DNA of 64,000 nt from a virus (Duplodnaviria > Caudoviricetes). Each line of letters opens with the position of its first letter. The first letter of the stretch is position 1. This document shows positions 23,021-64,000 of this stretch, piece by piece. Where the stretch lies: IMG/VR virus record IMGVR_UViG_3300032280_000320, positions 1 to 64,000 of that record; one strand, given 5' to 3'. The notes under the pieces were generated by a model. The model ran no database searches and was not told where the DNA came from. It saw only the letters and a program-made list of their open reading frames with translations. A program made the translations under genes and the position numbers.

Positions 23021-25488
<2,468 letters not shown>

Positions 25489-34882: not shown

Positions 34883-35075
34883 CTTTTACCTTTAACTTAA
34901 ATACAAATGTCTGATTATCTGCATCGTAGTCAACCTGTAGTTCCTTGTCTTCATTTAAAGCTTCAATTAAAACACTGGTGGGAACCATTAGTTCTTTATG
35001 TGATTCTAATATTGCTACTAATATCTTTGTAACATTTAGTTCTGCAAAGATATCCTCTGGTGCTTCTTCTGTCAT
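34863..35075 (-). CDS. Hypothetical protein
   Basis: Coupled ORF. Confidence 0.7.
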   Translation of the reverse strand: MTEEAPEDIFAELNVTKILVAILESHKELMVPTSVLIEALNEDKELQVDYDADNQTFVFKLKVKDDNVEH

Positions 35076-38000: not shown

Positions 38001-38347
38001 TCATTCCACGCAAGCTCTTGAAGCGTGTTAATATTTTCTAGCCCCTTCTTATTTTTTGCAAGAAGGATAATATGGTTGTAAGCCTGAATAGACTTATCTG
38101 TTTTAGATGATCTATCAAATCTATCTGTGGGGGAGATGTATGCCTCTACACCAAGGATTGGTTTAATTCCTAATTCTTTTGCAGCAATCTGCATGTCTCG
38201 GTGTGATGAAAGTGTTCCATGATCTGTAATTGCAATTGCTGTTTGCCCAGCATCTAGTGCAGCCTGACATAATTCTTTAGGTGAATTTAATCCATCCATT
38301 AATGAATAATATGAATGGACGTGTAGGTGTGTGAATTGATTACTCAA
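35072..38347 (-). CDS. dnaE: DNA polymerase III alpha subunit
   Basis: PHP HLHVHSYYS, TDHG; GRGSAAGS, PDIDTD, KLD.LGL, YSFNRSHA; no intein visible. Confidence 0.97.
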   Translation of the reverse strand: MSNQFTHLHVHSYYSLMDGLNSPKELCQAALDAGQTAIAITDHGTLSSHRDMQIAAKELGIKPILGVEAYISPTDRFDRSSKTDKSIQAYNHIILLAKNKKGLENINTLQELAWNEGFYHKPRIDREVLNEYKEGIIVLSGCLNGLISKCIEKGEFKEAKIILQDFKKNFAEDFYIEVQSHNPQEINSKLLELADELKIKAVATGDAHFAKEEDRILEEALLILSTSPKADKDTDFDMSRNIKDMLDRFNYLYPDRRISFQDYNLFIQSRSEIEADFNKAGINRTDIYENTMEIANKIEEYDFYQGLDLLPVPKTDADERLLELSEKGLESLQKASDPIYRDRLREELDIIASKNFASYFLVVADMINWAKENDIRVGPGRGSAAGSLVCYALGITDVDPIEYDLLFFRFINPERNDFPDIDTDFEDRRRKEVKDYLKKRFKHVASISTYTYFKDKGVVRDAARVFMVPLQEVNRALKSVDTFEDFIDSPNTKEFRLRYPEVVWLADRLRGRIRSVGVHAAGVVVAKDDLRKFAPVESREDSQDKVSGRIPVVAYDMDTVADIGLIKLDALGLKTLSVISDTLGSIKKRHKKDINLSGLSMDDPKVYQMLSEGYTKGVFQAEATPYTNLLMKMGVDKFEDLAASNALVRPGAMNTVGASYINRKHGREAVEYTHTILKPFTENTYGVIIYQEQVMQACVHLGGMTWAEADKVRKIIGKKKDAKEFDQFKDKFVTGASEHITKKKAEALWHDFEAHAGYSFNRSHAVAYSMLSYYTAWLKSYYPLEFMFSILKNENDKDARTEYLIEAKRLGLSIKLPHINESDIYFSLQGESIRFGLAEVKFISDSIANKIIEKRPYKDYVDFIDKASKKGSGINSRAITALNSIGGAAFDDNPRQGNEKDNYYEYLGIPTFNLAGIPPRIKAQARPIQDFDDLGSFVMFGMVKSIKRGSGWARVELVDETGSIGLFHTEQTQIETNQMYFILVGDNRIARYIKVSDIDPKSDDLFVDYLYRKEYDLEEDEYIVVNFTPYTTKAGKQMSHIVLSNKDKELTRVIAFPTMYKMSLAKMREGMKCKVVLSKLDDGTLNIKEIL

Positions 38348-39535: not shown

Positions 39536-40534
39536 TCACGGGTTCCAAGATTGATATTCAATATTGGATACTGCGTTCTTAATACAGGCTTTAATCTCTT
39601 CTTGGGTCATATCGCCTACATCTTTTGCATCATGTGGGTATATCTTACCATATTCGTAAGAAGCCCACAAGAGGTCTTTATTCCTTAGCCTGCTGGCTAT
39701 GTTGTTACCAAGCTCTCTTCCAGCCTGGTCTGCGTCTGTCATTATAATTATTCTATTAAAATATTTATTTAATAAAGATATATTCTCTGATGATATGTGA
39801 CCACCTAATGTTGCTACTACATTTGGGAAGCCAGCCTGATGAACTAGGACTGCATCAAAGTTAGATTCAACAATGATTACAATTCCACCTTCTTTTTTTG
39901 CTCTATGAATATTAAACATTGTTTTGCTTCTTGGAAGATTTGTGCTGTTCTTAAATCTCTTGTCTGATATAGATCTGCCAACTAAGCCCACTGGAATTCC
40001 ATCTGGGCTATGTACTGGGGTAATAACCATGCCATTTGCATTTGAGTATCCAAGACCAAAGTATTTCATTGACTCTTCATTGATTCCTCTAGACTCCAAA
40101 TAATCTCTAGGCTCTTTATTGCCAAATAGATCTGCATGTAATCTGTCTAAAACTTCTTGTGAAAATTCTTCAAACTCTGGTTTGTCTTCCATAACAGAGC
40201 TTAGCATCTCATCAAAGTTATCGAGAACAATATTTTCTTTTGAGAACACATATCTCATTGCTTGAAAATCATTCTTATGCAATACTCTTTTAACAAGATC
40301 AATTACTGATCCTGACTCTCCGCATGATGGATTAAAGCAAAGCCATGCGCCAGTTGTTTTACTTATACTACAACTAGCACTGTGTCTATTAGAATGAAAT
40401 GGGCAGTAGAAAGCTATCTCAACATCAGTTTCACCAGTACAGTCTAGGCCTATTCCTTTTACTATAGCCTTGATGTGGTCTGGGGCATACTGCGTGGAAT
40501 CAACTTTCCTTGCGTAATTCCCTCTGACTGCCAT
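39536..40534 (-). CDS. dnaG: DNA primase
   Basis: CPFH..C...C zinc finger, GR, TOPRIM IVESNFD, DADQAG, KDVGD. Confidence 0.92.
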   Translation of the reverse strand: MAVRGNYARKVDSTQYAPDHIKAIVKGIGLDCTGETDVEIAFYCPFHSNRHSASCSISKTTGAWLCFNPSCGESGSVIDLVKRVLHKNDFQAMRYVFSKENIVLDNFDEMLSSVMEDKPEFEEFSQEVLDRLHADLFGNKEPRDYLESRGINEESMKYFGLGYSNANGMVITPVHSPDGIPVGLVGRSISDKRFKNSTNLPRSKTMFNIHRAKKEGGIVIIVESNFDAVLVHQAGFPNVVATLGGHISSENISLLNKYFNRIIIMTDADQAGRELGNNIASRLRNKDLLWASYEYGKIYPHDAKDVGDMTQEEIKACIKNAVSNIEYQSWNP

Positions 40535-40761
40535 GCTTTCTTCTTTCCAACATATATCCCATAGAGTGTCATTAAGAACACCCATGTTTGTCCGTCAAAT
40601 TCTACCGAAAAGGCTGGGTTTATGTCAAGTACTCTTGCATACCCTTTGCCTTTCATGTCTTGTGTTAGAAGGCTTTCGTACTGCGCTCTAACTCTGATCA
40701 TATCGGAATCGTCTTTAAACTCAACCTTTACTTGAAATCTTTTTATCTGTTTGTGATTCAT
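40462..40761 (-). CDS. Hypothetical protein
   Basis: ORF bridging dnaB and dnaG. Confidence 0.7.
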   Translation of the reverse strand: MNHKQIKRFQVKVEFKDDSDMIRVRAQYESLLTQDMKGKGYARVLDINPAFSVEFDGQTWVFLMTLYGIYVGKKKAWQSEGITQGKLIPRSMPQTTSRL

Positions 40762-41989
40762 CTTTTTGGAAAGGATTCTCATAAATTTCTTTGACGATAC
40801 CACGGTTGATATCCCAATCTAAATACAGGCCAAACTCATGACCATGTCTATTCTTTCTTGAAACTATCTCAATCATATTAGTTCCTGGATATCTGTGAAC
40901 TGCCATAGCCATGTCAGCATCATACTCAATAGCCTTTGACCACGCAACCTGAGACATCATTGGAGGATTATCTTGATCAGATACATCGTCCGCAGTTGCT
41001 GCAGTGATATCAATAATTGGAATATTGTTTGATACCGCAAGCATTTTAAACTCACGAGAAACATTTCGGTTTCTTTCTACTTCAGAGTTACTTCGTTTAT
41101 TATCATTAAACAGCTGGTGATAATCAAGGATAACTAGGTCTGGCTTGTGCTGGTCAATCTTGCCTTGAATAGTTGCTGGTGTTACTTCTGTGTTTCCTTC
41201 GTTTGAAATAAGAATAAAGCTATTCTTATCCGCAAACTTTTTTGTAGACCATGAACGAAAGTCATCAATATTAATATTGCCTTTTGAAAAATCTGAGGCT
41301 TTAAATAGACCAGAGCCTAGCATTGTATAGATACGGTCACGCATATTCTCTGGAGACATTTCAAGAGAAACAATCATTGGCTTAAAGCCTTGCTCCCAAG
41401 CCTTACATGCCAAGTAGGAAGTAAACCACGTCTTACCACGTCCAGGCCATCCAATAGCCACGATTAAGTGTCCAGGAGCCATTCCTGTTGGATATGCTAA
41501 ATCAATGGCCTCAAAACCAGTTTTAATTCCTGGTGATCCACCCATCTCTGCAGAACGCACACGAAGTAATTCCATATGTCTAATTGCAGCATCTGCATCT
41601 GTGATATCTAAGTCTCTAACGTTATTTGTAAATCTACTTAGGTTTGCAAGCTGGCTTTGCATCTGCTCTAGAACTCTTGAGGCAGCATCTTCTTTTAATG
41701 CAGAGCCACTCTTTAGAATAATATTCTTCAGTCTATTAGACAGGAACTCATTCTTTAATGTATCAAGATAGTATCCAGTCTCTGCCTTTGTTTCTACTGG
41801 CTCAAAGTCTTTAAACTTTTCCTGCAGGATTCCCACTTCTGGGACCGCCTTGAATTTATAGTAGTATGACTTTAGGCCTTCCCAAATGTCTTTGTGCGAA
41901 GTAAATAGTTCATCCACATTGTCTGCCAGCAGTGTGCTAATGTCTTTATTCTTACATACTGCTGAGATAAGTGTTGCTTCTGTGTTCAC
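40721..41989 (-). CDS. dnaB: Replicative helicase
   Basis: GWPGRGKT, SLEMS, LDYHQL, IEYDAD, KNRHG. Confidence 0.95.
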   Translation of the reverse strand: MNTEATLISAVCKNKDISTLLADNVDELFTSHKDIWEGLKSYYYKFKAVPEVGILQEKFKDFEPVETKAETGYYLDTLKNEFLSNRLKNIILKSGSALKEDAASRVLEQMQSQLANLSRFTNNVRDLDITDADAAIRHMELLRVRSAEMGGSPGIKTGFEAIDLAYPTGMAPGHLIVAIGWPGRGKTWFTSYLACKAWEQGFKPMIVSLEMSPENMRDRIYTMLGSGLFKASDFSKGNINIDDFRSWSTKKFADKNSFILISNEGNTEVTPATIQGKIDQHKPDLVILDYHQLFNDNKRSNSEVERNRNVSREFKMLAVSNNIPIIDITAATADDVSDQDNPPMMSQVAWSKAIEYDADMAMAVHRYPGTNMIEIVSRKNRHGHEFGLYLDWDINRGIVKEIYENPFQKDESQTDKKISSKG

Positions 41990-44637: not shown

Positions 44638-47600
44638 TTATCCTTCTAGGGCGTCAAGTCTTGCTTGAAGAGTATCTATTTTATTAGCCATCTCTTTAAA
44701 TGCACCTACAAGGTACATTGGTATTTTTTCATATCCAACCGAATCAGGCAAACCATTTTTATATATAACAAGATCATTATTCGGCTGTATCTCATGAACA
44801 TCTTCTGCAATTAAACCTAAGTGCACCTGTTCTGGTAAATCAGAAAATTCTGGCTTATAGTTAAATGTCACAGGACTGAGATTTTTTATCAAATCATATA
44901 TTGGCTCTGTGTTTTTGTATTCAATGTTTTCTTTATAATTTCGGCTAGATGCGGATGAGTATACTCTTAAGTATCCGTCTGCTGCTTGAACTAGGGTTAC
45001 ACCTGAACCTGGTGTTCTTGTAGTTGTGCCAAGTGTATTTGCAAATATTCTACCGTCACCAAAGATTCTTGTTATTGGTCTACCAGCAATATCTGGATTT
45101 GGGGTATCACTGCTTCCATTTCCACCAATCATAATGCTACCAGTTAGTCTTAAATTTCTCCACCTATAAGTACTGTAAGTAACTGAGGACTGTGCGCTTG
45201 ACTGATTGATTCCTAAATCTGAGCCTCCATCATAGTATGGGTAGCATGAGCTTTGCCACCCTCCACTATTTACAGATATAAAACCAATTGAGTTAACTCC
45301 TAAACTAGGGATTCCGTTTCTTTGATATACTGTTGAGAAAGCGTTTGTAACAGTACTGATTATAACCGTTGGGTTTCCGTCTGGATCATTACCTACGGCT
45401 CCAGAGCCTCCGTCTACGTTAATAGATCCGCCAGTAATTAATGCACCGCTGATTGATGTATTTGCTGCTACAGCATTTGCTGTAATGTTTCCAGTTATTA
45501 TTGCGCTTTTTGCAGTTAATATACCACTTGAGCTAACGCTAAAGTTTGTTGAGCTATTTGATATTGAACCGTTAGAATTAATTGTTAATGTGTTTGTTCC
45601 GTCTGTTGCAGTAATTGTAGATGCTGATATTGCACCACTAAATGTTCCAGATGCTGCGGACAGGGATCCCTTAAAGAAAGCATTTCCAGATGCGTCAATT
45701 ACAAACTGCTTAGATATAATAGATCCTTGGTTATCTAAAACAATACTCATTCCATTTTGAGAAAATGGAGTTGTATTTGGTGATCCTCCAGGTGCTGTAT
45801 ATGTTGCTGACTGAATTACTCCAGTTCTAATCTTGCCGCCTGAAATTGTTGTTGTATTGCTGTTAACGTCTGCTGCTGCTCCGCCTGCGCCAAGTTTAGT
45901 AGCTAGACCTGTTGTCAGGTCTGTAGTCGATGCCTTGGTGGCTAGACCCGTTGTAAGAGCTGTAGTAGATGCCTTTGCAGCCAAGCTTGTGTTTATGTCA
46001 GTTATTGTTGGTCCTGTGATTGTTGCAGCTTTCATAACCACTGTTCCGTCTGCTTGAACATAGAAATTTGCTGCTGTTGAACGTGCTCCGCCTGCCCAAA
46101 ATACAATATCAGATGGAGAGTTTGTATTTGGTGTAGCAATACCTGCTGTATAGCTTGTGCTAGTTGCTGTTATCTGTGCGGTGGCTGAGTTAAGTGTGAG
46201 TGTGCCAGATGTGCTTGTTTTTGATATAGCGCTTGATGTTACATCCCAGTTACCAATAGAAGCAGATGCTGTTGTAAGCTTTCCTGTTGTGCCATTGATT
46301 GTTGTTATGCCATTTGTTCCTGCTGAGTTAAATGTGAGTCCAGTTGAATTTAATATGTATCCTGCACCTGAAAGGTTACCTCCAACAATTGCTCCAGAAT
46401 ATAATGAGCCACCGCTTGCAATATTAACGTTACCAGTAAATGATCCGCTAGCTGCATTTATATTTCCAGTAAGGTATAAGTTTGTTCCATTAAAATACAT
46501 GAACTGTGTGTCTGTTCCCACACGTAATTGTCCTGTTGTTAGCCAGTAGTTGTTTTTATTTCCAGTCTTATTTAAAAGTATTCCATGGTATCCGCCAAGA
46601 GGAGAAGGTGAGTTTGACGGAATAGTTGTTATGGAAGTGTTAATTGAATCAGGTATTCCTGTTCCAAACTTAAATAGGTCTCCTGTTGCTCCACCAATTG
46701 CTAATATTGATTTTAATCTTGCTGCAGCATTTACTGCGGTTGCAGCAGCGTCAGCTGCTGTAAATGTTTGGGTTGTGCTATATGTTTGTGTATTGTTATA
46801 CTGATCTACCGATGCAACTTGATAGTAATATGTTACATTTGGAATAAGCCCAGATGCAGTAAACGAAGTAGCATTTGTAAATCCATATTCCCAATTTGGA
46901 TTTGGCACTGTTGCTGGGTTATCTGGTGACCAGCGAAGCCTATACCCTCTTGTAGAAGTATCTGTTGATGCCGTCCAAGAAATTCTTGAAGATAAGCTAA
47001 ATCCAGTTTGGTCGTAAGTATCAACTGTTGCAACAGCACCTATTCCTGTTGGATTTGTTGGTGGAATTAAATCTGCAACAACAACTGATTTAGGAGTAAC
47101 AGATACTGCTGCTCCATATTGGCCAGCACTTCCATTGTTTGCAATAAACCTTGCTCTAACCCAACGCTTATTCTGGTTACTTCTTGTTAGCGATACTGGA
47201 TTTGATAGACCATAAAAACATGTTTCATATCCAGATGCTGGATCTGTTGCAGATGTAGATTCTACTTCTTGTATTTCAATTCCTGCAAATGTTTTATCTG
47301 TTGGCGTTGTATATGATACAGTGTAGCCTTCTACTGCTTCAGCAACATTTATTGTTGGTGCTGGCAAATTATTTACATACACGTGTGCTGCAAATGTAAC
47401 TGGTGTGCCTTGATTACCGTATATGTCTACTGTTGAAACTGAGCCAGAAAACGAAGTCTGTGGTACACCAAAGGATGCTCTATTTGCTTCTAAGCTTAAT
47501 GCAAATTTTTGCGAGGAGCCTGCTACTGGCCTTAATGTAAAGTCTGCTGCGGTGCCATCTGTTGCTATTAGTTTTATTAAATAAAATGACAAATAGCTGT

Positions 47601-48180
47601 TTGCTGGTGCAGAGGGGTCAGAATTAAACCCTACGGTAAAATCTGTACCAGACCATGCTGGGACAATTACTGTTGGTAAGCCTGGTGCATCAGCTTTTGC
47701 TGTTACATTTACAACTTGATTGAATCCAGAAAATGCTCCTGTTTTTGACACTGATCTAAGCTTTACATTATAATCGCCTGGCAATACTGGTATGTTTAAT
47801 GAGCCGCCTGTTGCTGGTATTGATCCCTTGCTTATATATAAGTTATCTGCGTCTGTCGCCCATTTAATATAAACTTCAATCTTATCTAGTGTTGATGGGT
47901 AGCTTCCTCCAACAGAATTTTTGCCGTCCCATTTAACAGTTATTATTCCTTGTGAGTATGTTACTATAGCTGGGGATGGCGGTAGTGGTGTTGATTCTGC
48001 TGGTGCGGTTATAGACTTTACTGCAGACCAATCTTCTCCAAATGTTCCATCCTTATACTTCCATCTAAACTCTAATGGATAAATAGTTCCTGGTATCAGG
48101 CCTGGTATGGTTACAATAAAGTAATCGCCGTTGTCATATGACTGCGATGTGTCTTTAAGTAAATCCTGATACTCTGCCAT
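44638..48180 (-). CDS. Tail fibre/tip protein with FN3 repeats and C-terminal S74 chaperone
   Basis: FN3 patterns (GLIPNVTYYYQVASVD), Gly/Ser/Thr beta repeats, SS..YKENI...GLIAEDV + coiled coil. Confidence 0.85.
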   Translation of the reverse strand: MAEYQDLLKDTSQSYDNGDYFIVTIPGLIPGTIYPLEFRWKYKDGTFGEDWSAVKSITAPAESTPLPPSPAIVTYSQGIITVKWDGKNSVGGSYPSTLDKIEVYIKWATDADNLYISKGSIPATGGSLNIPVLPGDYNVKLRSVSKTGAFSGFNQVVNVTAKADAPGLPTVIVPAWSGTDFTVGFNSDPSAPANSYLSFYLIKLIATDGTAADFTLRPVAGSSQKFALSLEANRASFGVPQTSFSGSVSTVDIYGNQGTPVTFAAHVYVNNLPAPTINVAEAVEGYTVSYTTPTDKTFAGIEIQEVESTSATDPASGYETCFYGLSNPVSLTRSNQNKRWVRARFIANNGSAGQYGAAVSVTPKSVVVADLIPPTNPTGIGAVATVDTYDQTGFSLSSRISWTASTDTSTRGYRLRWSPDNPATVPNPNWEYGFTNATSFTASGLIPNVTYYYQVASVDQYNNTQTYSTTQTFTAADAAATAVNAAARLKSILAIGGATGDLFKFGTGIPDSINTSITTIPSNSPSPLGGYHGILLNKTGNKNNYWLTTGQLRVGTDTQFMYFNGTNLYLTGNINAASGSFTGNVNIASGGSLYSGAIVGGNLSGAGYILNSTGLTFNSAGTNGITTINGTTGKLTTASASIGNWDVTSSAISKTSTSGTLTLNSATAQITATSTSYTAGIATPNTNSPSDIVFWAGGARSTAANFYVQADGTVVMKAATITGPTITDINTSLAAKASTTALTTGLATKASTTDLTTGLATKLGAGGAAADVNSNTTTISGGKIRTGVIQSATYTAPGGSPNTTPFSQNGMSIVLDNQGSIISKQFVIDASGNAFFKGSLSAASGTFSGAISASTITATDGTNTLTINSNGSISNSSTNFSVSSSGILTAKSAIITGNITANAVAANTSISGALITGGSINVDGGSGAVGNDPDGNPTVIISTVTNAFSTVYQRNGIPSLGVNSIGFISVNSGGWQSSCYPYYDGGSDLGINQSSAQSSVTYSTYRWRNLRLTGSIMIGGNGSSDTPNPDIAGRPITRIFGDGRIFANTLGTTTRTPGSGVTLVQAADGYLRVYSSASSRNYKENIEYKNTEPIYDLIKNLSPVTFNYKPEFSDLPEQVHLGLIAEDVHEIQPNNDLVIYKNGLPDSVGYEKIPMYLVGAFKEMANKIDTLQARLDALEG

Positions 48181-54164: not shown

Positions 54165-54640
54165 TATACTTCCTCCAGCGTCATTGATATTGTCCAGAAA
54201 GAATGTAATCCACGCTTTTGTAAGACTGCGGAAAATTCTGTAAACGAGACTGTATATACTTCTCCTGTTAAAGCTGTGTCTTCTGCGGCACCAGACTTTG
54301 CAAAATTTAATAGTATTCTAAATGTGCCCTTGCCTTCTTCGCTTGCATAAAATCTTCTTAGGTCTTCTGCACCAAGGTTTCCGTCTGCCGTATGTGTTCT
54401 TGTTGTGGGTAGCATATTCCAAGACATGCTAAATGTTTTTTTGTCAGCAATAAAAAATTTTCTAAGGGTTCCGTTAGCCATTCTTTGAGTTTGTTGGATT
54501 CTATTTGAGCCTACAGTTATTTCTGATCTATTGTGATCAGATATTTTTAGCCAAGTTAAAGTGGTGCCTGGGACAGTAGCAAGAACATCCTTGCCTTCTA
54601 TTTGTAACCCTACACCTTTAGGTAATTTTGTATAACCCAT
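54164..54640 (-). CDS. Distal-tail-like minor tail protein
   Basis: Directly after the TMP; SDHNR, RMANGTLRK..IADK, W..S..LEEV. Confidence 0.75.
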   Translation of the reverse strand: MGYTKLPKGVGLQIEGKDVLATVPGTTLTWLKISDHNRSEITVGSNRIQQTQRMANGTLRKFFIADKKTFSMSWNMLPTTRTHTADGNLGAEDLRRFYASEEGKGTFRILLNFAKSGAAEDTALTGEVYTVSFTEFSAVLQKRGLHSFWTISMTLEEV

Positions 54641-57600
54641 TATGCTTTAACCTCCAATCCACTTCCTAGTGATCTACTTTCTCCCATAGATTTAACTGAT
54701 ATCTTGCTCATTGTCTTTATAGACTCAACTGTTTTTCTTGTAACCATGTCAGACAGTGCATTTATGTCACCATCATATCCATTAATATTATTTGTAATAT
54801 TATATACGCCTCCACCCATTGTAGCATTATTAGCGTTTGGATTAAAGGGGTTCATATTAGCAGGAACTACTGCTTCATTCTTATGAAGCATGGCAAGCAT
54901 GTTTGCTGGGACGTTATTTATACCAGTTTCAAATCTAGGGATATTGAATTTGCCTCCACTTAAGTATCCCCCAGTTGCACCAGTAATTCTTTTACTTTGA
55001 AGACCCGCAATTTGGGCAAGCTTTGCATCCATTTCTGTACCAGATATAAATCCTCTAGCATATTGATTTATAATAAACTCCTGCATTGCTTTAAGGTCAC
55101 TTGGATTTGGGTAAGTCTTTCCGCTTTCATATTTACCAAAACGTGTCCACATTAAAAGTGCATCTAAAGCTTTTGTTGCTGTGGTGGTTCCAGTATTGGG
55201 AGTACCTACTGAAGTTTTATATTCATTTAAAAGATATGTAAACGGATTGCTTCCAGATCCTTTTGCCAGCATATCTAAGTCACCACTGTTATGGCCTCCA
55301 TCAAATCTTACTCCAAGCTTAGAGGCTACTTCTTGAATTACATCTTGATTTAAAGAATGATGCTCACCGCCGACAGCGTATAAGTATGGCTGATCTATTC
55401 CAATTTGTTTTTTTGCTTTATCTATTGCTATTATCTGTAGGGCTCTTTGGGCACTCATAGGAGTATCAACCTCATAAGAACTTCTTGCTGGCATGTAGAG
55501 ATCTTGATTGCCAAACACTCTTTCATGATTTGGCCTAGCCCTCATAGCGTCGTCTACTTGTGCGGCAGGTCTTAAATTACTATTTTCGTTAATTTCTTTT
55601 AATATTTGATCAAGCTCTGACTGGGAATATTTTTCTTTTGCTAAGTAAAATATTTCTTTTGTTGAAGGGTTTTCTGCCATTATTGGCAGCGGGTCTCCTT
55701 GTTTATATAACCCAAGCTCTGTTAATCTTTTAATATAGGCTGATTCTTCTAAAGGAAATACTGAACTGAGCTGCCCTTCTTTTTTACTATACTTAAATGG
55801 TTTCCCAAATTTTTGTAAGAAAAAGCTGTCGATTGAATGAAGCTGTTCTGGCTTACCGTTATATTTCATTAAATTAGAAAGTGTACTTACTATAAACGGC
55901 TTGTCTGGCTTCCAAGATCCCTGAAAATGAGATTGAACTGCATCATAAATTCCAAAGTGCCTTGATGTTCTAGCAACAGCATAATCAGCAGCTTTATCAG
56001 TTCCAGCAACAGAGCCTTTGGGTCCTACAAACCTATCAAATATTTTAAATCCTGCAGCAGTTTCTAGAAGGTCTCCGCTGGCATCTGCTGTTGGGAACTC
56101 TTCATTAAACACTCTTATCATTGGAATATCGTCTGGTGTTGGTGGAGCATAGGGGTCCATTCCTCTTGCTCTGTAAGCTGCAATCTCTGCTCTAGTTAGA
56201 GGAACTTCTCCACGGAATCCATGGAAACCTCCCTTTACTCCACCAGCACGTTCTGTGGCTGCTGCAATTAATGCGGCTTGCTCTTTGGCATTCTCTGCAT
56301 ATTCTTTTGCTGATCTGGCAAGTATCGGTGACATTGCTTTTGTTTTAGTTCTAATAGCAATATCGTCTTTTGCGCTACCAAGAGTTGCAGAAATCAATTG
56401 AGTAAGTCCTGCTGAATCTAGAGAGGTTGCAAGCTCTGGCATTCTTAGATCTTGGCCCAGCATGCTGATAGGGAGTAGGTCTGTATCTATTTTCCTTAAA
56501 TTTATGCTTCCTGCCGCTAGCATGTTCATTAAAAATTCTCTTACCTGTTTGTCATCCCACTTGTTATTATTCATCTTGTCTAACAAAATTTGAGCTTTTT
56601 TATTTTTTGGATCTTTTTTCAAAATATAAGAAAGTATTCCTTCGGGTGTTGTTGGTATAATATCAGAAACCTGATGATTTGTTAATAGGGAGCCAAGGTT
56701 TTCATTTGTGCCTTGGAAAACAACGGCATCGTTACCAAAAGGCCCTCCTGAATGTAATGGTACTTTATTTCCTTCATGAACTACAAATGGCGGATAATTA
56801 TTATTTGGTTTCATCTGCTCTGCAGTTGCAGTTATTTTTGGTTTTTGAATTACTGAAGCTACTCTATTTTCAACAAATGGCCTTGCTGCACCGATTACTG
56901 CAGCAGTTGCTGCATTTGTTGCAATCTTTGATCCAGATGCTCCAAGGAATGGTATCGAACCCTTTGGCAATAAGTGGCCAAGGTTTGGAATTCCTTTTGC
57001 TGCGCCAAATCCCTCAACTATAGATCTCATAAGTGCATTTCCGTTTGCCCCGCCAACCCTAGCTAAGGCAACATTTATTGCTGCGGTTAGGTATTCTCCT
57101 TTAGCCCAATCCCTGCCATCTTGGTAACGCTGAGCTCCTCCTGCTCCGACAAGGGCGGTGAGTAGAATATTTTGCATTTCGGTATGTATCGGACCACCAG
57201 GATTATTTCCCCCAATGGCTGCTGTCCAGTTTTTACTTGTTGTAAATGTTTCCCATAGAGATGGAGGGTTTTTTACCCATTCACCATTTTCATTTTTATA
57301 ATAGTTGCCATCCTTCTCATAAAATTTGTCGGTTGCTTTAGAGTTTGCTGCAGCTCTTGCTGGACTTAATGCACTCATGCTTGGACCTGAATAAGGTGCT
57401 TTGTAACTGCTTGCCATATGCCCTGGACTCAAATGCTTATGTCCTACTAGTCCGCCTTTATGGAAACCTAGCCCAGATTTAATTTTCTTAAATAGCTTAC
57501 TCCAATTAACAACTGAATGCATGGATCCACCAGATACCATTGTTCCCTGATTGCCAACAATTTCTCCGCCGCCAACCAGCATGCCTCTACTCCAAGAGTA

Positions 57601-60600
57601 TTCATGGTTTTCAGGAATATAATCTGGATAAATTGTTTTATATTTATCTGGTAGGAACAGCTCCGCTCTTCTATTTTTAGCTTTGTTTTCAGAAGTTGTA
57701 TTTGGAACAAGAGGTCTATATTCGCCATATCCTACTGGAGTGAATGCTGTGCCAGGAACAAACTTTGACATATATTCTGCAATAGCATTTGCTCTATTTT
57801 GTGAAAGGATCTTGTTGTCTTTTTCTTTACCTACAGAGTCTGTGTGTCCTTGAACAACTATTGATGCTAGCTTATGCTTAATAAGATCTTTAGCAATTTT
57901 TTGAAGCTCTAGTCTTTGCTCTTTATTTAATGTGTAAGAATTTGTATCAAAATTAGCTGTGATAGGCGGAACTTCAATTTTAACAACCTGCTTATTGGCA
58001 TCTTGCCATGCTTCTATTGGGCCCATTAGTTTTCCGCCTTGTTCGACTCCCTCAGTTGTCGATCCATGCCTATGTCCTACAGGCCCGCCTTTATGTAGCC
58101 TTTGAGCATTTAATTTATCAAAAAAATTAACTCCATATTGCTTTACAGCTTTTTCTTTAATTACATATTCACCATTTGAAAGCATGGCTGGAATAGAATC
58201 AGATGTTCCAGTTCCTGGACCAGATACTTTTCCTCCTGGCTCAAAATACTTTACCTTACCGCCCTTATTATATGAAACTACTTTTTTATCCCAAGGATTG
58301 CTAGCGTAATTTTCGCTTGCCCATCTACCAATTATTTTTCCATTTTTATCGGTTACTCTACCATCTGCTGTGTAGGTATATCCAGTTTTTGGATCAATAT
58401 AATCTTTAAATTTATTACGACCATCTTCTTCTCTGATAGTAGTTCCACGTTTAGTTGGATCTGGGTGCTTAAATGATTTATACTGGGCTCCTCCTGGAGT
58501 ATCCTCTGCAGGTTTAGGCATAAAGAATCTTTCACTTTCTTTATAAACTTTACCAGATGAATCTATGTACTGTCCAGTTTTCTTATCAAAAGTTAATTTT
58601 ATTGGTGCTCCCTTTGCATTAGCAAAGGCATTAGCTTCTCCTACTTCTGGTAATCCTAGTAGCTTTTTGACATACATTCCAAATGAATCTACGTGTTCTC
58701 CAAAGCCATCAAAATATTTTTCTGCATATTCTACAGCTGAGTTACTTGCTCCACCAGGATCATTAGTTATCTTTTTTAGATATGTGAGCCAATCAGCTGA
58801 ACCAGGCTGCTGGAAACTTAATCCCTTTGGACCAGTAACTGTTTTTCCTGCTGTTATTGGAACACCAGCTGTAACTGTTTTTGCTGCAGCCGCACCTTCT
58901 GAATTTATTGCAGCTAACGCTGCTACGTCTGATTGTAGTGCTTTTGCCAAGGTGCCTAGAACACCCTCATCTGTTGTCATTCCAGCTTTTGATATAGTAG
59001 TTGCAATACTTTGCTGTAGGGCCTGTATTGATGCATATTCTTTTTGCTTAATGTTAGCAATTTCTTGTAGCTTGTTTGCTTTCTCTTGAAGCTTAATAAG
59101 TCTCTCTTGAACTGCAGCTTTTGCTTCTTCAAGCTTTTTAACTTCTGCATCTCTTTTATCTTGGATTGCATCTATTGATAATGTTTTTTGTCTTTCGTTT
59201 GTTAGACTTTGTATATTAAGCTGTGACTGCGCTGCACGTGACATATCTCCAGCTAACAATGCTTGCTGGTAATTTAGTTGCTCTTTTTGTACCTCTGTTA
59301 AATAATCTTGCTTTTCTGCTTGATCTTCAATAGCACGTATTCTTGCATCTGCTTCTTCGTTGATTTTTTCTATCTTTTTGTCGAGAGCCTTTATCTCTGC
59401 ATCTGCATTCTTTTGAGCATTCTTTGTTGCATCGTCTGAGGCTTTCTTTGCTTTATCGTATGCAAGTTTTGCTGCTGTTCCATAATCTGCAATTGCATCA
59501 ATTGGGTTATTTAATAAGTTAGCATTTGTAGTCATTTCAGATGCAGCTTGTGAAATTGCTGTCACTACCTGTAGCAAATCTTGTGCTTCTTGTCCGCTTA
59601 ACCCTGATAGATTAGCAGTTACGCCATTTGTATAAAGCTGTATTTTTGCCCATGCATCAACCATACTGTCATTTGAATTAAGTATATCTTTGTATAAAGG
59701 ATTTTCTTTTACAAGAAGATTTAATATGTCATCGCCAATATCTTTTTGATTATTCTTATTTGCATTCATTTGCTCTATTGTGTCATTTAGAGCTTCTGTC
59801 TGTGTCTTTGCTTTTCCAGTCTCATCTTTTATTCCAACTAGGCTTTGGTAGTATAGCTGTATTGCATCTAGCCCGCCGCTAAATGAGGCTGCTATTTCTT
59901 TTTTGTCTACGTCTGCGCCTTCAATTGATTTAACAAATGTCTCTATTGCTACTCTTGCTGCGGATGCTCTGTCTACTACTCTTAAAAATTCTGATGAGGA
60001 TACAGCTGCCGTTGCCTGAGCAGCTTTATTTGAAACAGATATAATGCTGTAAATTTCTTTTGCAGCTTCTTGTGCTGATTTTCCTGCTGCAACTAGCTGA
60101 ACCTTGAGTGCTGTTGCTGCTTTTGTAACGTCATTTTCATCAAGGTTATTAAACATCTGTACGATGTCACCTTGTGTTTCTTTAGCTTTCTTTTGTAGAG
60201 CATTAAGTTCTTTTACAGACATATTGATTCCGCCGCCTATAGCGGTAGATCCAGCAGCCTTAATCTTTGCTAACTCTCCCTGTGCCTTTGCAGCTTCTGT
60301 TGCTTTTTTAATTTTGTCTGTCAGGCTTGTGTATGTTATGCCAAGTTGTTTTGCTTGTATTTCATTTACATCTAATGCTTCTTGAGAAGCAAGTCTTGCT
60401 TTTCTTGCATTCTCCCATGCTCCATAAGAGACTGTTGCAAGTGTTGTTAATGCAAATATTGCAACCTTACCCCAACCAGGAATTGCTTTGCCAGCAGCAT
60501 TAAGCTTTCCTAAAGTTTGACCAAACTTGCCAACGTTTCTTTCTGCTGCAACAGCTGCCGTTGCTTCTCCTACAGCACCTCCTGCTTTGGCGGCTTTAGC

Positions 60601-63600
60601 AGTTTTTATACCTTTGTAAATTGATCCAGCAGTCATTACTGCAAATATTCCATTTAGAATAAGGTTTGATTTTTCGCTGGCGATTCCCAACTTCTCTAAA
60701 GCTTTTGGCAATAGCATAAATGCAGCTAGTGGTAAAGCTTGCTGTGCAACAACACCTGCAACTGGACCTAGTGCTCCATAATTATATTTTCCACTTTTAA
60801 TCATTCCTCCCAATGCATGGTTAGGAACAATACCTCCACTGTTCATAGGAACAAATAGTTCTGGTCCCTTTTCTCCAACTATGTAAGGTGTGCCACCAGA
60901 TACAGGTCCGCCTTTTTCTCTAGCCTCTAAGCCAAATATTAATTTCTTTAACTCTTCTGTTAATGGAGTATCTTTTCTTGATTCCCAGTTTGTATATCTT
61001 CTTTTAAGTATATCTCTGTCTATTGCAGACAATACCTTTCTTCCTTCTGGTGCGGAAATTGTAGAAGATGCAGCTGATCTAATAACTGAGTCCATAATAT
61101 CTGGCTCTAGTGCTTTTAGTAATTGTCCTTGTGCATTTTTAGAATAGCCATAAGGCATTTCTTTTGCAAGTGCTTCTGCAAACTTGTCATAAAGAATTCT
61201 TTGTGCTCTCTTTGTTAATCCGCTAGAAGCAAATAGCTTTTCTGCCATTCCTATTTCTAGTGATGTTACTCCCCATCCGCCAGTTGTATTCTTTCCAAAT
61301 CCCGCTCCAATTCTACGCATAGCAAGAGATTTAATAACATTGATTAATCCACCACCATTAAATCCATTAGCATCAGATTTAAATTCCATATCACTTAAGC
61401 TTACAGCGTGGCCCTTTTGTCTTGCTCTTAATGCTGCAGCTTCTTCTAATTTAGCAAGTGCTGCTGGCGTCAATGATTTTGGAGCACTTGGCTTAACTGC
61501 TGCATGTATGCCGTGAAGTTCTTTCCAGTTTACATGCCTTGCATCTTCAAGCCTTCTTATCATTGCAGCATAAACTTCTTCTTCTCTTGGAGTTAGACCT
61601 TTAAAGCCAGCAATTGTTTCTTTTAGTCTAGGAAGGACCTCATCAATTTCATTAAGCATTGATTGCTGATATTGCTGAGGAGTCATTCCTCTTGGAATGT
61701 CTACTGTTGATTCTGCAAAGAATCTTTTTGCTCCGCCCTTTACGCCAAGTAAATTAATTCTTGCTTGTTCTCCAACTGATGGCATATCGTCTGCGTATGA
61801 TCTCAGACCAGAAGCTGTTTTAAATACACCCATAGTTCCGCCATCTGCAACAAAACTTCCACCAATGTTACCAGGTGATAAATCTTTGTCTCCTCTTAAT
61901 GCTGATGCGAGTAGCTGTTGGAAGTACTCTTGCTCTGACATTTCTTTTGGCAAGCTTGCAAATCTTGGGTCATAAGGTGATTCAAGAACAAGGAGTTTTC
62001 TTTTGCCTGCTGGATCTGTTGGGTCTATCATTACCCTTATTTCCTGCTGAGGTGTTGTTAATCTATGTGCTCCTTGGTGTATTGCATTATATCTTTGCTC
62101 AGCAAGTGCAGCAGTTTCATCAAGGACTGGCTTAACAAATACTCTTGTTCCGTCTGGCTTTGTGTATACTCCGCCCACTCCTTCGACTGGGAAGCTGTGA
62201 CCTTTTGTATCTTCTTCTTTCTTTCCAAAGTTAGTTGGTTCTTCTTTTGCAAAACGACTCTTGTTTACTGCTTCTGTCGTCTGCTCCATAACCTCTCTAC
62301 GTTTTCTTTGCTCTTGAACCTGCTTAATTGATTTAGGCATTCCAAGAAACAGTCTGCCGTAGTTTCTTTTCTTCTTTAAAATAGGTCCGCCCATTGCAAA
62401 TTCTTCAAATTCATCAAGCTGCATATGGGCAAAAGCTCCACGCTCACCATTAACTGTCATTCCTTTAGGATTGTATGATTCATAAGAACCCATGAAGTCT
62501 GTTCCGAATTCATCATTCTTTGCAATTAATTCATCTACGCTTGTTGTGCCATAAGGATTTATTCCTGTGGCAGCTTTAAATCCAGATTTAGTATCTCCTG
62601 GTTTACGGAATGCTCTTCTTTGTCCAGGTATACCTAAAGACCTAATATATTTCTTTCTTAAACCTAATCTCTTTGCTATCTCTAGATATACATCGTGTTG
62701 TGCTTTTGCAAATAATTTTTCTCCAATTAATGTATCACCATGTGCTTGGAAGTTCCCTACAATTTTATCTCTTGCTTCTAAAACTAATGAGTCTGCCATA
62801 TCGTCATCTATTTTATTTACCTTTAAGAATCTTCTTAGTGCTGGTAGCGCTTCTGAAGGAGGGAGTGACATTATGTCATCTATTATTTCTTGTGGCTTGG
62901 CTGTACTACTATTTATTTTTGAGTTTGTTGTTTTTCTAGTATTGAGTCCCCAGTTACCAACAAAGAAATATCCAAATGGATTTTTAAGTGTGCGTTTTAC
63001 TGGTGCTGCTGCTCCTAGTGTTTCATCAACAAATTTTTGAGCATTAGATCCAGAAGTTGCAACTCTCTTACCCATCTTCATTATTGGAGACAAAAGATCT
63101 TCTGCTGCATCTGTAACAGCCTTTGGCAACTTAACTCTTCCATAATTGTGCTTACCAGAAACAATTGGTCCACCTAAAATTCCGCCTGCATTTCTAAATT
63201 GAATTCTTTGTCCGTTATTTGCCGCCTCTAATATAGGCAACATCTCTTGTGTTTGTTCTGGTGTAAATACTGTCTCATATGGAGTCAGCATTGCATCAAT
63301 CATTCCGCCACGATTATATGGCTTAGTCTTTTTTGCATATTCAACTAGCTGTGGATTATTTCTTGTTGCATCTTGATTTAATACAAAACCACCAACTGGT
63401 ATTTTTGCCATTGTATTGTCATAGTTTACACTCTTGTCACCAGGTACAACTGGGCCATCTTCTAATGTGTATACATATCCACCATCATTAAACCCTCTAG
63501 ATGGACCTCTTTTTGGAAGAATAATTCTTGGCTTAGTGGTTTCTATACTATAGCCTCCGCCTGACGTTCTAACTCCTAAGCCTCTTGCAACATCATCAAC

Positions 63601-64000
63601 AAGTGCTGCGGTTTCTGGCTTATGGAACATTTCTTTCATGTTTGATTTACCAGTTACTGGATCAACTACTGGCTGGCTAGTAAATGGTACTGTTGTTAAA
63701 TTAATACTTCTTCCCATACCTGCTGCAACTTGTGCCGCAGTCTCTGCCATCATTATTTCAATTGTTGCATTAAGTGAAATTATTCTTGCTCTAGCTTGCT
63801 CTACAGTTATTACACCTTGCTGTAGCTGTCTTACAATCATTGCTCCTTCATCAGCCGCCAATGAAGTAAGTTGTTGCATTTGTGGAAGCATCTGTTGATA
63901 AACTGAGGATAACTCATGTGTTACTGTTCCAGTTGCTGCTACTTCCGTTTTTAATAATGTAAGTTCTGCTTGAGACTGGGTTGCAATAGCTGCTGTCATT
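54640..64000 (-). CDS. Tape-measure protein, at least 3119 aa, 5' end outside the window, with embedded kinase-like and OmpA domains
   Basis: Size and position; Ala-rich coiled coil; TMP motifs GGPV..GTPYIVGEKGPELFVP and GPGTGTSDSIPAMLSNGEYV. Confidence 0.9.
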   Translation of the reverse strand, partial: MTAAIATQSQAELTLLKTEVAATGTVTHELSSVYQQMLPQMQQLTSLAADEGAMIVRQLQQGVITVEQARARIISLNATIEIMMAETAAQVAAGMGRSINLTTVPFTSQPVVDPVTGKSNMKEMFHKPETAALVDDVARGLGVRTSGGGYSIETTKPRIILPKRGPSRGFNDGGYVYTLEDGPVVPGDKSVNYDNTMAKIPVGGFVLNQDATRNNPQLVEYAKKTKPYNRGGMIDAMLTPYETVFTPEQTQEMLPILEAANNGQRIQFRNAGGILGGPIVSGKHNYGRVKLPKAVTDAAEDLLSPIMKMGKRVATSGSNAQKFVDETLGAAAPVKRTLKNPFGYFFVGNWGLNTRKTTNSKINSSTAKPQEIIDDIMSLPPSEALPALRRFLKVNKIDDDMADSLVLEARDKIVGNFQAHGDTLIGEKLFAKAQHDVYLEIAKRLGLRKKYIRSLGIPGQRRAFRKPGDTKSGFKAATGINPYGTTSVDELIAKNDEFGTDFMGSYESYNPKGMTVNGERGAFAHMQLDEFEEFAMGGPILKKKRNYGRLFLGMPKSIKQVQEQRKRREVMEQTTEAVNKSRFAKEEPTNFGKKEEDTKGHSFPVEGVGGVYTKPDGTRVFVKPVLDETAALAEQRYNAIHQGAHRLTTPQQEIRVMIDPTDPAGKRKLLVLESPYDPRFASLPKEMSEQEYFQQLLASALRGDKDLSPGNIGGSFVADGGTMGVFKTASGLRSYADDMPSVGEQARINLLGVKGGAKRFFAESTVDIPRGMTPQQYQQSMLNEIDEVLPRLKETIAGFKGLTPREEEVYAAMIRRLEDARHVNWKELHGIHAAVKPSAPKSLTPAALAKLEEAAALRARQKGHAVSLSDMEFKSDANGFNGGGLINVIKSLAMRRIGAGFGKNTTGGWGVTSLEIGMAEKLFASSGLTKRAQRILYDKFAEALAKEMPYGYSKNAQGQLLKALEPDIMDSVIRSAASSTISAPEGRKVLSAIDRDILKRRYTNWESRKDTPLTEELKKLIFGLEAREKGGPVSGGTPYIVGEKGPELFVPMNSGGIVPNHALGGMIKSGKYNYGALGPVAGVVAQQALPLAAFMLLPKALEKLGIASEKSNLILNGIFAVMTAGSIYKGIKTAKAAKAGGAVGEATAAVAAERNVGKFGQTLGKLNAAGKAIPGWGKVAIFALTTLATVSYGAWENARKARLASQEALDVNEIQAKQLGITYTSLTDKIKKATEAAKAQGELAKIKAAGSTAIGGGINMSVKELNALQKKAKETQGDIVQMFNNLDENDVTKAATALKVQLVAAGKSAQEAAKEIYSIISVSNKAAQATAAVSSSEFLRVVDRASAARVAIETFVKSIEGADVDKKEIAASFSGGLDAIQLYYQSLVGIKDETGKAKTQTEALNDTIEQMNANKNNQKDIGDDILNLLVKENPLYKDILNSNDSMVDAWAKIQLYTNGVTANLSGLSGQEAQDLLQVVTAISQAASEMTTNANLLNNPIDAIADYGTAAKLAYDKAKKASDDATKNAQKNADAEIKALDKKIEKINEEADARIRAIEDQAEKQDYLTEVQKEQLNYQQALLAGDMSRAAQSQLNIQSLTNERQKTLSIDAIQDKRDAEVKKLEEAKAAVQERLIKLQEKANKLQEIANIKQKEYASIQALQQSIATTISKAGMTTDEGVLGTLAKALQSDVAALAAINSEGAAAAKTVTAGVPITAGKTVTGPKGLSFQQPGSADWLTYLKKITNDPGGASNSAVEYAEKYFDGFGEHVDSFGMYVKKLLGLPEVGEANAFANAKGAPIKLTFDKKTGQYIDSSGKVYKESERFFMPKPAEDTPGGAQYKSFKHPDPTKRGTTIREEDGRNKFKDYIDPKTGYTYTADGRVTDKNGKIIGRWASENYASNPWDKKVVSYNKGGKVKYFEPGGKVSGPGTGTSDSIPAMLSNGEYVIKEKAVKQYGVNFFDKLNAQRLHKGGPVGHRHGSTTEGVEQGGKLMGPIEAWQDANKQVVKIEVPPITANFDTNSYTLNKEQRLELQKIAKDLIKHKLASIVVQGHTDSVGKEKDNKILSQNRANAIAEYMSKFVPGTAFTPVGYGEYRPLVPNTTSENKAKNRRAELFLPDKYKTIYPDYIPENHEYSWSRGMLVGGGEIVGNQGTMVSGGSMHSVVNWSKLFKKIKSGLGFHKGGLVGHKHLSPGHMASSYKAPYSGPSMSALSPARAAANSKATDKFYEKDGNYYKNENGEWVKNPPSLWETFTTSKNWTAAIGGNNPGGPIHTEMQNILLTALVGAGGAQRYQDGRDWAKGEYLTAAINVALARVGGANGNALMRSIVEGFGAAKGIPNLGHLLPKGSIPFLGASGSKIATNAATAAVIGAARPFVENRVASVIQKPKITATAEQMKPNNNYPPFVVHEGNKVPLHSGGPFGNDAVVFQGTNENLGSLLTNHQVSDIIPTTPEGILSYILKKDPKNKKAQILLDKMNNNKWDDKQVREFLMNMLAAGSINLRKIDTDLLPISMLGQDLRMPELATSLDSAGLTQLISATLGSAKDDIAIRTKTKAMSPILARSAKEYAENAKEQAALIAAATERAGGVKGGFHGFRGEVPLTRAEIAAYRARGMDPYAPPTPDDIPMIRVFNEEFPTADASGDLLETAAGFKIFDRFVGPKGSVAGTDKAADYAVARTSRHFGIYDAVQSHFQGSWKPDKPFIVSTLSNLMKYNGKPEQLHSIDSFFLQKFGKPFKYSKKEGQLSSVFPLEESAYIKRLTELGLYKQGDPLPIMAENPSTKEIFYLAKEKYSQSELDQILKEINENSNLRPAAQVDDAMRARPNHERVFGNQDLYMPARSSYEVDTPMSAQRALQIIAIDKAKKQIGIDQPYLYAVGGEHHSLNQDVIQEVASKLGVRFDGGHNSGDLDMLAKGSGSNPFTYLLNEYKTSVGTPNTGTTTATKALDALLMWTRFGKYESGKTYPNPSDLKAMQEFIINQYARGFISGTEMDAKLAQIAGLQSKRITGATGGYLSGGKFNIPRFETGINNVPANMLAMLHKNEAVVPANMNPFNPNANNATMGGGVYNITNNINGYDGDINALSDMVTRKTVESIKTMSKISVKSMGESRSLGSGLEVKA
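57433..58095. repeat. 30-bp direct repeats flanking the OmpA cassette
   Basis: 57433-57462 and 58066-58095 match at 26/30; encode HKGG(L/P)VGH(K/R)H. Confidence 0.85.

Follow-up and report, generated by a model that had tools for sequence, protein, structure and literature searches.

A domain in the tape measure protein gene

The DNA analysed here, hereafter the window, comprises the first 64,000 nucleotides of a 114,331-base virus record (IMGVR_UViG_3300032280_000320; Caudoviricetes), and the element in question is a segment with a predicted protein-kinase-like fold inside the tail tape measure protein (TMP). A kinase-like domain of the HipA or PI3/PI4-kinase type had been proposed there from the letters of the sequence, at positions 61490-62205. 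The plus-strand translation of 61490-62205 is interrupted by many stops. The minus strand, to which coordinates marked (-) refer, carries a single open frame (54640..63999, 3119 aa, P0001) that is still open past the window end; the list of open reading frames (ORFs), the translation and this continuation place the in-window part of the TMP gene at 54640..64000 (-), and a TTG start in the upstream flank (G000:C1:66237) gives a full protein of 3865 aa. The motifs on which the original prediction was built are all present in the order given there, but on the minus strand. Plus-strand ORFs below the region (e.g. 61697..61975, 92 aa) were considered as genes and rejected, being antisense frames within the conserved 3865-aa ORF.

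By its profile matches the gene encodes a tail tape measure protein, as had been proposed. Its N-terminal 746 aa match 13 PHROG families named 'tail length tape measure protein' (best E 1.3e-124), and the exact protein is present in the protein collection (P0153) with precomputed PF10145 and PF00691 matches. A hidden Markov model (HMM) match, the placement of the gene and the internal hydrophobic segments all agree with membership of the TP901 family of TMPs (PF10145).

On the evidence of an AlphaFold2 model, of structural neighbours and of homologues, the kinase-fold domain (P0002, 304 aa; TMP residues 1313-1616) spans 61390..62301 (-); residues are numbered below as in P0002. An extended Gly-rich loop, GHSFPVEGVGGVY (residues 34-46; 62164..62202, -), precedes and enters model strand 44-47. 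It is followed by the lysine of a VFVK motif, K57 (62131..62133, -), which is putatively ATP-phosphate-binding and lies in a beta3-like strand (residues 53-59), and by the glutamate of an AALAE motif, E68 (62098..62100, -), in a putative alphaC-like helix (residues 62-77), both assigned from conservation and the modelled secondary structure. Directly after helix 123-136 comes a catalytic-loop-like DKDLSPGN (D138, D140 and N145; 61867..61890, -), assigned from conservation and HipA-like spacing, and 8 residues past N145 a conserved DGG (D153 and G155; 61837..61845, -) supplies a putative metal-binding, 'DFG-like' Asp. The FAMGG and FNGGG motifs originally named as the bounds of the domain, located by regular-expression match upstream (62386..62400, -) and downstream (61348..61362, -) of it, respectively, do bracket the proposed interval, but are positioned just outside 61490-62205 and not at its ends.

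These residues are strongly conserved. In the 151-sequence homologue alignment from which all residue counts are taken, K57 is kept in 134 of 134 sequences and E68 in 138 of 138, D140 and N145 each in 145 of 146, D153 in 146 of 146 and G155 in 142 of 146; in the Gly-rich loop, G34 and G44 are kept in 134/134, S36 in 133/134 and Y46 in 130/134. The complete Lys-Glu-Asp-Asn-Asp set is found in 132 of the 134 homologues that span all five positions. One of the two exceptions, P0099, is a fragment 96% identical to the query and aligned solely over query residues 5-118, and because its match is limited in this way its later alignment columns are probably not homologous; the other, P0104, is taken up below. 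D138 is less strict (Asp in 139 of 145, Asn in 6), and the constrained unit of the loop, as read from the alignment, is therefore D140-L-x3-N145 with G137 before it. Fifteen diverse members, with identities as low as 28%, were aligned and checked by hand, and the same catalytic residues are invariant among them. An active site would be expected to show near-invariance of this kind at the five positions; a scaffold would not.

AlphaFold2, given an alignment of the window segment and 19 short homologues, returned a model of the domain with a predicted local distance difference test score (pLDDT) of 87.6 and a predicted template modelling score (pTM) of 0.83. Its N-lobe elements are strands 27-31, 44-47 and 53-59 (with K57), helix 62-77 (with E68) and strands 87-92 and 102-109; helix 123-136 leads into the D138-N145 loop, two short strands and D153, and helices 176-297 make up a helical C-lobe. 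Residues 161-170, at the location of the activation segment, are the least confident in the folded domain (pLDDT 63). The elements follow one another as in a protein-kinase-like (PKL) core, with the bilobal fold that characterizes the PKL superfamily in the model, and the residues that characterize this superfamily (a beta3 Lys and a helix Glu, D-x4-N, and then an Asp) are present at positions that fit the modelled secondary structure. By contrast, the adjacent, conserved 184-aa module downstream of the domain (60838..61389, -), treated alike, gave a pLDDT of 65.8 and a mixed neighbour list with a best Z of 5.3 and no clear structural match.

A wide search with VIA-align, independent of Foldseek and covering 48,161 representative chains, yielded 17 chains at Z of at least 8, with kinase-fold enzymes in 50 of the 50 listed rows. 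The top neighbour was CotH (5jda; Z 11.9, 218 aligned residues, rmsd, i.e. root-mean-square deviation, 3.8, 6% identity), followed by MavQ (7m7a; Z 10.5), PI4KIIalpha (4hnd; Z 10.0), CtkA (3akj; Z 9.5), Fam20C (4kqa; Z 9.1), HipA (4pu3; Z 9.0), HipT and ATM (Z 8.8 each) and actin-fragmin kinase (Z 8.7), with PI4KIIIbeta, SMG1, Vps34, RIO, Bud32 and others in lower rows. In a second look, at Foldseek's top 1000, Z was 10.8 for CtkA, 10.3 for MavQ, 10.1 for PI4KIIalpha, 9.6 for LepB and 9.2 for HipA. Foldseek itself placed the LepB N-terminal fragment (4jw1_A, E 1.8e-3) first among PDB entries, with a kinase in every row listed, and the nearest named clusters by protein-language-model features were LepB_N (0.93-0.94). 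An atypical-kinase (protein-kinase-like) fold is thus supported for the modelled segment. The original prediction had expected such a fold, of the HipA/CtkA/PI3K-like kind, with conserved K/D/N/D residues. It is borne out on both counts, by the confidence of the model, by the kinase-fold enzymes in all 50 listed rows, by the presence of HipA, CtkA and PI3K/PI4K among the neighbours (Z 8-11) and by the 132 of 134 homologues noted above; CotH, the top structural neighbour, was absent from the families it named.

Distribution, protein architecture and genome context

With P0002 as query, phmmer was run exhaustively on 1.84 billion cluster representatives (50% identity) and found 165 representatives at E<=1e-3, 140 of them at E<=1e-30. 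Among the 150 listed of these 165, reaching down to 27-30% identity, 123 are at least 1700 aa long (median 2873, maximum 4468); the short ones look like fragments, in that they begin or end within the domain or carry TMP-type motifs. A collection of 90%-identity clusters contained 829 matching proteins of 1715-5459 aa. PF10145 was present in 112 of the 120 listed among these 829, and a kinase Pfam in 0 of the 120; names among the listed matches were 'TP901 family phage tail tape measure protein', 'hypothetical protein', and 'LysM repeat protein' or OmpA-like. On these matches the segment is a discrete domain, sharply delimited in the 165 cluster representatives, and in the majority of distant relatives it starts near residue 735-760, directly after the N-terminal core. 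A stand-alone form was not found in a profile search of proteins of 160-553 aa, whose 10 matches were all on short contigs and probably fragments. Among 50,697 deposited phage records tblastn found no match to the segment, and a scan of genome contigs gave 53 pattern matches, of which 0 were confirmed.

Within the TMP, modules are separated by short aromatic-x-x-Gly-Gly motifs. The expression [FYHL]x1-2GG has 22 matches in the protein (some overlapping, the FAMGG one among them) compared to 9.6 +/- 3.3 in shuffled sequences, and GG dipeptides number 52 compared to 32.1 +/- 5.2 in 1000 shuffles (maximum 49). The TMP-typical motifs GTGTSDSIPAMLSNGEYVI and VGEKGPELFVP are also present. The Gly-Gly motifs may act as hinges, cleavage sites or contacts with the tube. 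A Kyte-Doolittle scan located two hydrophobic clusters, at TMP residues 510-571, beyond the window, and 1822-1877 (60607..60774, -), and the kinase-fold domain lies between them. A 261-aa module upstream of the domain (62380-63162, -) had no Pfam match and no usable ESM Atlas match. Farther along the TMP are an Ala/Glu/Lys/Gln/Leu-rich stretch and, in the C-terminal half, an OmpA-like domain of the peptidoglycan-binding type (57670..57951, -; PF00691, E 3.2e-18, 66.3 bits, cut-off 27.2).

Modules were surveyed in 237 long relatives, each of them selected on the presence of the kinase domain. The N-terminal core was present in 212 of them, residues 601-905 in 116, the upstream module (residues 1026-1285) in 28, residues 1630-1800, of the downstream 184-aa module, in 117, where they always follow the kinase domain by 14-19 aa, and the OmpA region in 4. 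Bits per residue for the kinase domain were about those of the N-terminal core and above those of most other modules, a comparison biased by the selection of the set on the kinase domain. CHAP, LysM or OmpA domains occur elsewhere in relatives. In a distant TMP fragment (P0152, 652 aa) an HAD-family phosphatase domain (PF03767; E 1.2e-6, 28.7 bits, cut-off 27) follows the kinase domain, at residues 436-562.

Upstream, the TMP gene is preceded by two small ORFs of chaperone-like type (110 and 83 aa) and by one of 227 aa with a match to a PHROG that includes the major tail protein of Streptomyces phages; beyond these come head-tail genes, the genes of the major capsid protein (356 aa) and the portal, and an ORF of protease/scaffold-like type. 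Downstream are ORFs matching minor tail and tail proteins. The major capsid protein is 61% identical to the capsid of Streptomyces phages of the Stanwilliamsviridae, and Streptomyces phage Wofford has a matching gene order, with a TMP of 2084 aa. At 37.8% G+C for the record, the host is therefore not a Streptomyces. The domain family is found almost only in giant TMPs, most likely those of an uncultured phage clade distantly related to the Stanwilliamsviridae.

Elsewhere in the window, a 1180-aa tail-fibre-like protein (44638-48180, -) contains fn3 and, at the C-terminus, a Peptidase_S74 domain, an intramolecular chaperone of the endosialidase type. Replication genes encode a DnaE-type DNA polymerase III alpha (35072-38347, -), with PHP, NTPase, finger and HHH domains, a DnaG-like primase (39536-40585, -) and a DnaB-like helicase (40721-41989, -); at the DNA level, the helicase region and Streptomyces phages share 72-81% identity. 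Five tRNA genes, all on the minus strand, lie in 16149-38779 (Asn-GTT, Lys-TTT, Arg-TCT, Met-CAT and Leu-TAA). A 707-aa ORF (23021-25144, -) with a Pfam peroxidase match (E 3.7e-62) is of the catalase-peroxidase (KatG) type and has the look of an auxiliary gene for oxidative stress; its identity to KatG is 59-65% across many phyla, with several Bacteroidota near the top, which does not decide the host.

Proposed catalytic competence and possible roles of the domain

The reading that we favour, if by no great measure of confidence, is that TMP residues 1313-1616 form a catalytically competent kinase-fold module that is injected with the TMP and phosphorylates a host target before phage genes are expressed, as the model and analogy with other systems would suggest. 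In other words, a phosphorylating enzyme borne by the phage may enter the host when the phage infects. The original prediction likewise had a kinase delivered with the virion, acting at injection on host defence, translation or lipids, which is a plausible reading. The module belongs to the TMP chain itself, in which it is flanked by the two hydrophobic clusters. While in the tail lumen it would be non-native and metastable, a state also proposed for T5 pb2, and it would be expelled with the TMP at infection, when the hydrophobic segments would enter the host membrane. The TMP of T5 is described as a trimer that is metastable in the tube, expelled at infection and possibly refolded, and TMP hydrophobic segments as inserting in the membrane and forming a channel (PMC10038345). 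Since a kinase needs ATP, the module would refold and act at the cytoplasmic face of whichever membrane the flanking hydrophobic segments enter. There, K57, E68 and the Gly-rich loop would bind ATP-Mg, D140 would serve as the catalytic base and N145 and D153 would bind metal, so equipping the module to phosphorylate a host protein, or a lipid or small molecule, ahead of all phage gene expression. The neighbours of the model do not decide the substrate class, since protein kinases (CotH, CtkA, Fam20C and HipA) and lipid kinases (MavQ, LepB and PI4KII) are tied. A wider version of the same idea, which we offer as a tentative and rather doubtful extension, is that a large uncultured siphophage clade uses the TMP as carrier of a non-muralytic kinase-fold effector that is threaded through the tail and refolds at the cytoplasmic face of the channel. 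Were this true, a host protein or membrane lipid would be phosphorylated within seconds of adsorption, before phage transcription, and a pre-expression step of host takeover or anti-defence would reside within the DNA-delivery device itself.

Several points weigh against a catalytic, injected kinase. Some concern the active site and its detection. P0104 is a natural variant with D140V. The grouping of the five residues into one active site draws on their order and secondary-structure context in the model, not on superposition, and the spacing of N145 to D153 is 8 residues, compared to 18 (N314 to D332) in E. coli HipA. Foldseek found no PDB match at E<=1e-3 (best 1.8e-3), with TM scores of 0.2-0.3. 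Neither the segment nor the 3119-aa in-window protein had a Pfam match to a kinase family at E<=1, PDB sequences gave no kinase match by phmmer or with two profiles, and hhalign of the 151-sequence alignment against E. coli HipA returned a probability of 0.16%. Others concern delivery. Three folded domains of ~35 kDa should not fit the lumen of a siphovirus tube, so that storage requires unfolding; the periplasm is without ATP, so that activity needs the cytoplasmic side; and a domain in the N-proximal third would leave the tail late if the C-terminus leaves first.

Further sequence searches agree with these. Searching PHROGs with the segment found no kinase, and 15 members, each compared with Pfam at E<=10, gave no kinase-family match above cut-off, the single hint being a sub-threshold HipA_2 match in 1 of the 15 (E 0.015, 15 bits against a cut-off of 27) over the Lys-Glu region. 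A six-frame search of the genome found no PF07804 (HipA_C) match at E<=10 and no PF08757 (CotH) match. Matches to 19-residue WD40 repeats in the PDB profile search, at 1-4 bits per stretch, were taken as chance and set aside. Judged on sequence models, the domain falls outside HipA_C, PI3_PI4_kinase and CotH by the definitions of these families, and probably outside LepB_N. The part of the original prediction that pointed to HipA_C or PI3_PI4_kinase thus fails at the sequence level, where no HMM match above cut-off was obtained. Since no known kinase-family sequence model matches, the domain is best described as a new, unnamed sequence family of kinase-like fold.

The difficulty of storing folded copies lends some weight to a different role, in which the domain would be an active kinase, but one acting in the producing cell before or during tail assembly, on the TMP, tail proteins or late host targets, in a CotH-like manner, and not an injected effector. 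ATP and a folded state would both be at hand in that cell, but folded copies should not fit into the tube lumen; CotH, a kinase of structural spore-coat proteins, is the top structural neighbour (Z 11.9); and an invariant A163-S164 lies 10-11 residues past D153, in the stretch of pLDDT 63 where other kinases have activation-loop phosphosites. We nevertheless regard a role in assembly as unlikely. The lead of CotH over the next neighbours is just 1.4 Z and it is not at the top of the second look, cultured relatives among the 50,697 phage records searched make long tails without the domain, and the TMP-embedded enzymes that are known to date act at entry (PMC10038345). Somewhat less probable again is a non-protein substrate or another transfer reaction, with the domain acting as a lipid or sugar kinase (MavQ-, LepB-, PI4KII- or WaaP-like), or as an AMPylating or glutamylating enzyme, on envelope lipids or precursors where the TMP inserts. 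MavQ, PI4KIIalpha and LepB are indeed level with the protein kinases (Z 9.6-10.5), LepB comes first in Foldseek and LepB_N is the nearest named language-model cluster, and both the position between two hydrophobic clusters and the envelope-binding OmpA-like domain of the TMP would suit such a substrate; but CotH, CtkA, Fam20C and HipA, all protein kinases, score as well or better, the domain has neither a DRHxxN motif nor a PI3_PI4_kinase or LepB_N HMM match, and nothing in the analysis points to a lipid-binding surface.

The failure of every active-kinase family model to match, together with the natural D140V variant, would also fit a pseudokinase or a structural or nucleotide-binding unit of the TMP, e.g. 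a non-catalytic folding or plug element that sets tail length or gates ejection. We consider this improbable given that the five catalytic positions are near-invariant (132/134) down to 27-30% identity. Lastly, the TMP is Gly-rich and repetitive in places, and the motifs might have been a chance resemblance in a low-complexity structural protein without a true domain. This is hardly credible for a segment that is sharply delimited in 165 representatives, has a confident fold and has only kinases among its listed structural neighbours, and we take it to be refuted computationally by the homologues, the residue conservation, the fold model and the neighbours.

Comparison with known tape measure cargo and atypical kinases

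The enzymes that we know of within TMPs are cell-wall hydrolases or wall-binding domains, and full-text searches of the literature found no description of a kinase-fold domain in a TMP. TMP-related effectors of contractile injection systems have been reported (PMC11126660, PMC13277306). What appears to be new here is a kinase-fold sequence family and, with it, a type of cargo for TMPs. With a kinase fold that uses ATP, the role of the TMP would widen from measuring and piercing to delivering an enzyme of the signalling or toxin type, and the domain family is large, strongly conserved and invisible to present sequence annotation.

A parallel in a TMP is the C-terminal domain of T5 pb2, likewise an enzyme within a TMP, which acts on periplasmic peptidoglycan, unlike a kinase fold needing ATP (PMC10038345). 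Phages and conjugative elements encode large polyvalent proteins, presumed to be co-delivered with the DNA, in which kinase domains have been described (Iyer et al. 2017, PMC5512222); the polyvalent-protein kinase group is portrayed there as missing the whole C-terminal subdomain and as conserving a His and an Asp. Compared by that description, the TMP domain differs, as its model keeps a helical C-lobe and its loop has no conserved His, and 'tape measure' occurs 0 times in the main text of that paper (PMC5512222). Foldseek against BFVD gave 6 matches at E<=1e-3, in kinase-like regions of phage proteins of 614-1340 aa, with names such as ADP-ribosyltransferase, portal protein and, in one case, PI3/PI4-kinase catalytic domain protein, and none named tape measure.

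Among atypical kinases, CotH (PF08757, 5JDA) has the closest fold and is likewise tied to a large structural assembly, but is a free-standing protein, whereas the present domain is a module within a TMP and is without a PF08757 match. The Legionella lipid kinases MavQ (7M7A) and LepB, the latter by its N-terminal domain (4JW1; PF18640), are delivered effector kinases, to which the domain is similar in structure and, for LepB_N, in language-model features; the structural Z of 9.6 for LepB stands beside the lack of any PF18640 HMM match up to E 10, and delivery of MavQ and LepB is by a type IV secretion system into eukaryotic cells.

HipA and HipT (PF07804, PF20613; Z 8.8-9.2) and CtkA (3AKJ/3AKK; Z 9.5-10.8) are similarly close in fold. 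The loop GDKDLSPGN has the spacing G-x-x-D-x4-N in common with GATDGHAKN of E. coli HipA, whose His it lacks. Of the 'DxDxxxxN' signature first invoked for this loop, the second Asp and the Asn are kept; the first Asp varies, HipA itself reading TDGHAKN, so that G-x-x-D-x4-N is what is shared. Nor does the toxin-antitoxin context of HipA recur, as the domain is internal to a TMP, with no HipB/HipS partner and no HipA N-terminal domain. In the PI3K/PI4K/PIKK group (PF00454), PI4KIIalpha scores Z 10.0-10.1 and PI4KIIIbeta, Vps34, ATM and SMG1 about 8. With PI3K and PI4K the TMP domain shares a D-G motif and a catalytic loop of the D...N kind, but PI3/PI4 kinases have a DRHxxN loop where it has DLSPGN, with an invariant D-L-x3-N, and no PF00454 match. 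The domain could serve as a test case of whether an active enzyme can re-form in the host from a protein kept unfolded in a tail tube, of the earliest host modification imposed by a phage, and of whether atypical kinases of the CotH, HipA and PI4K types have a phage-borne relative in common.

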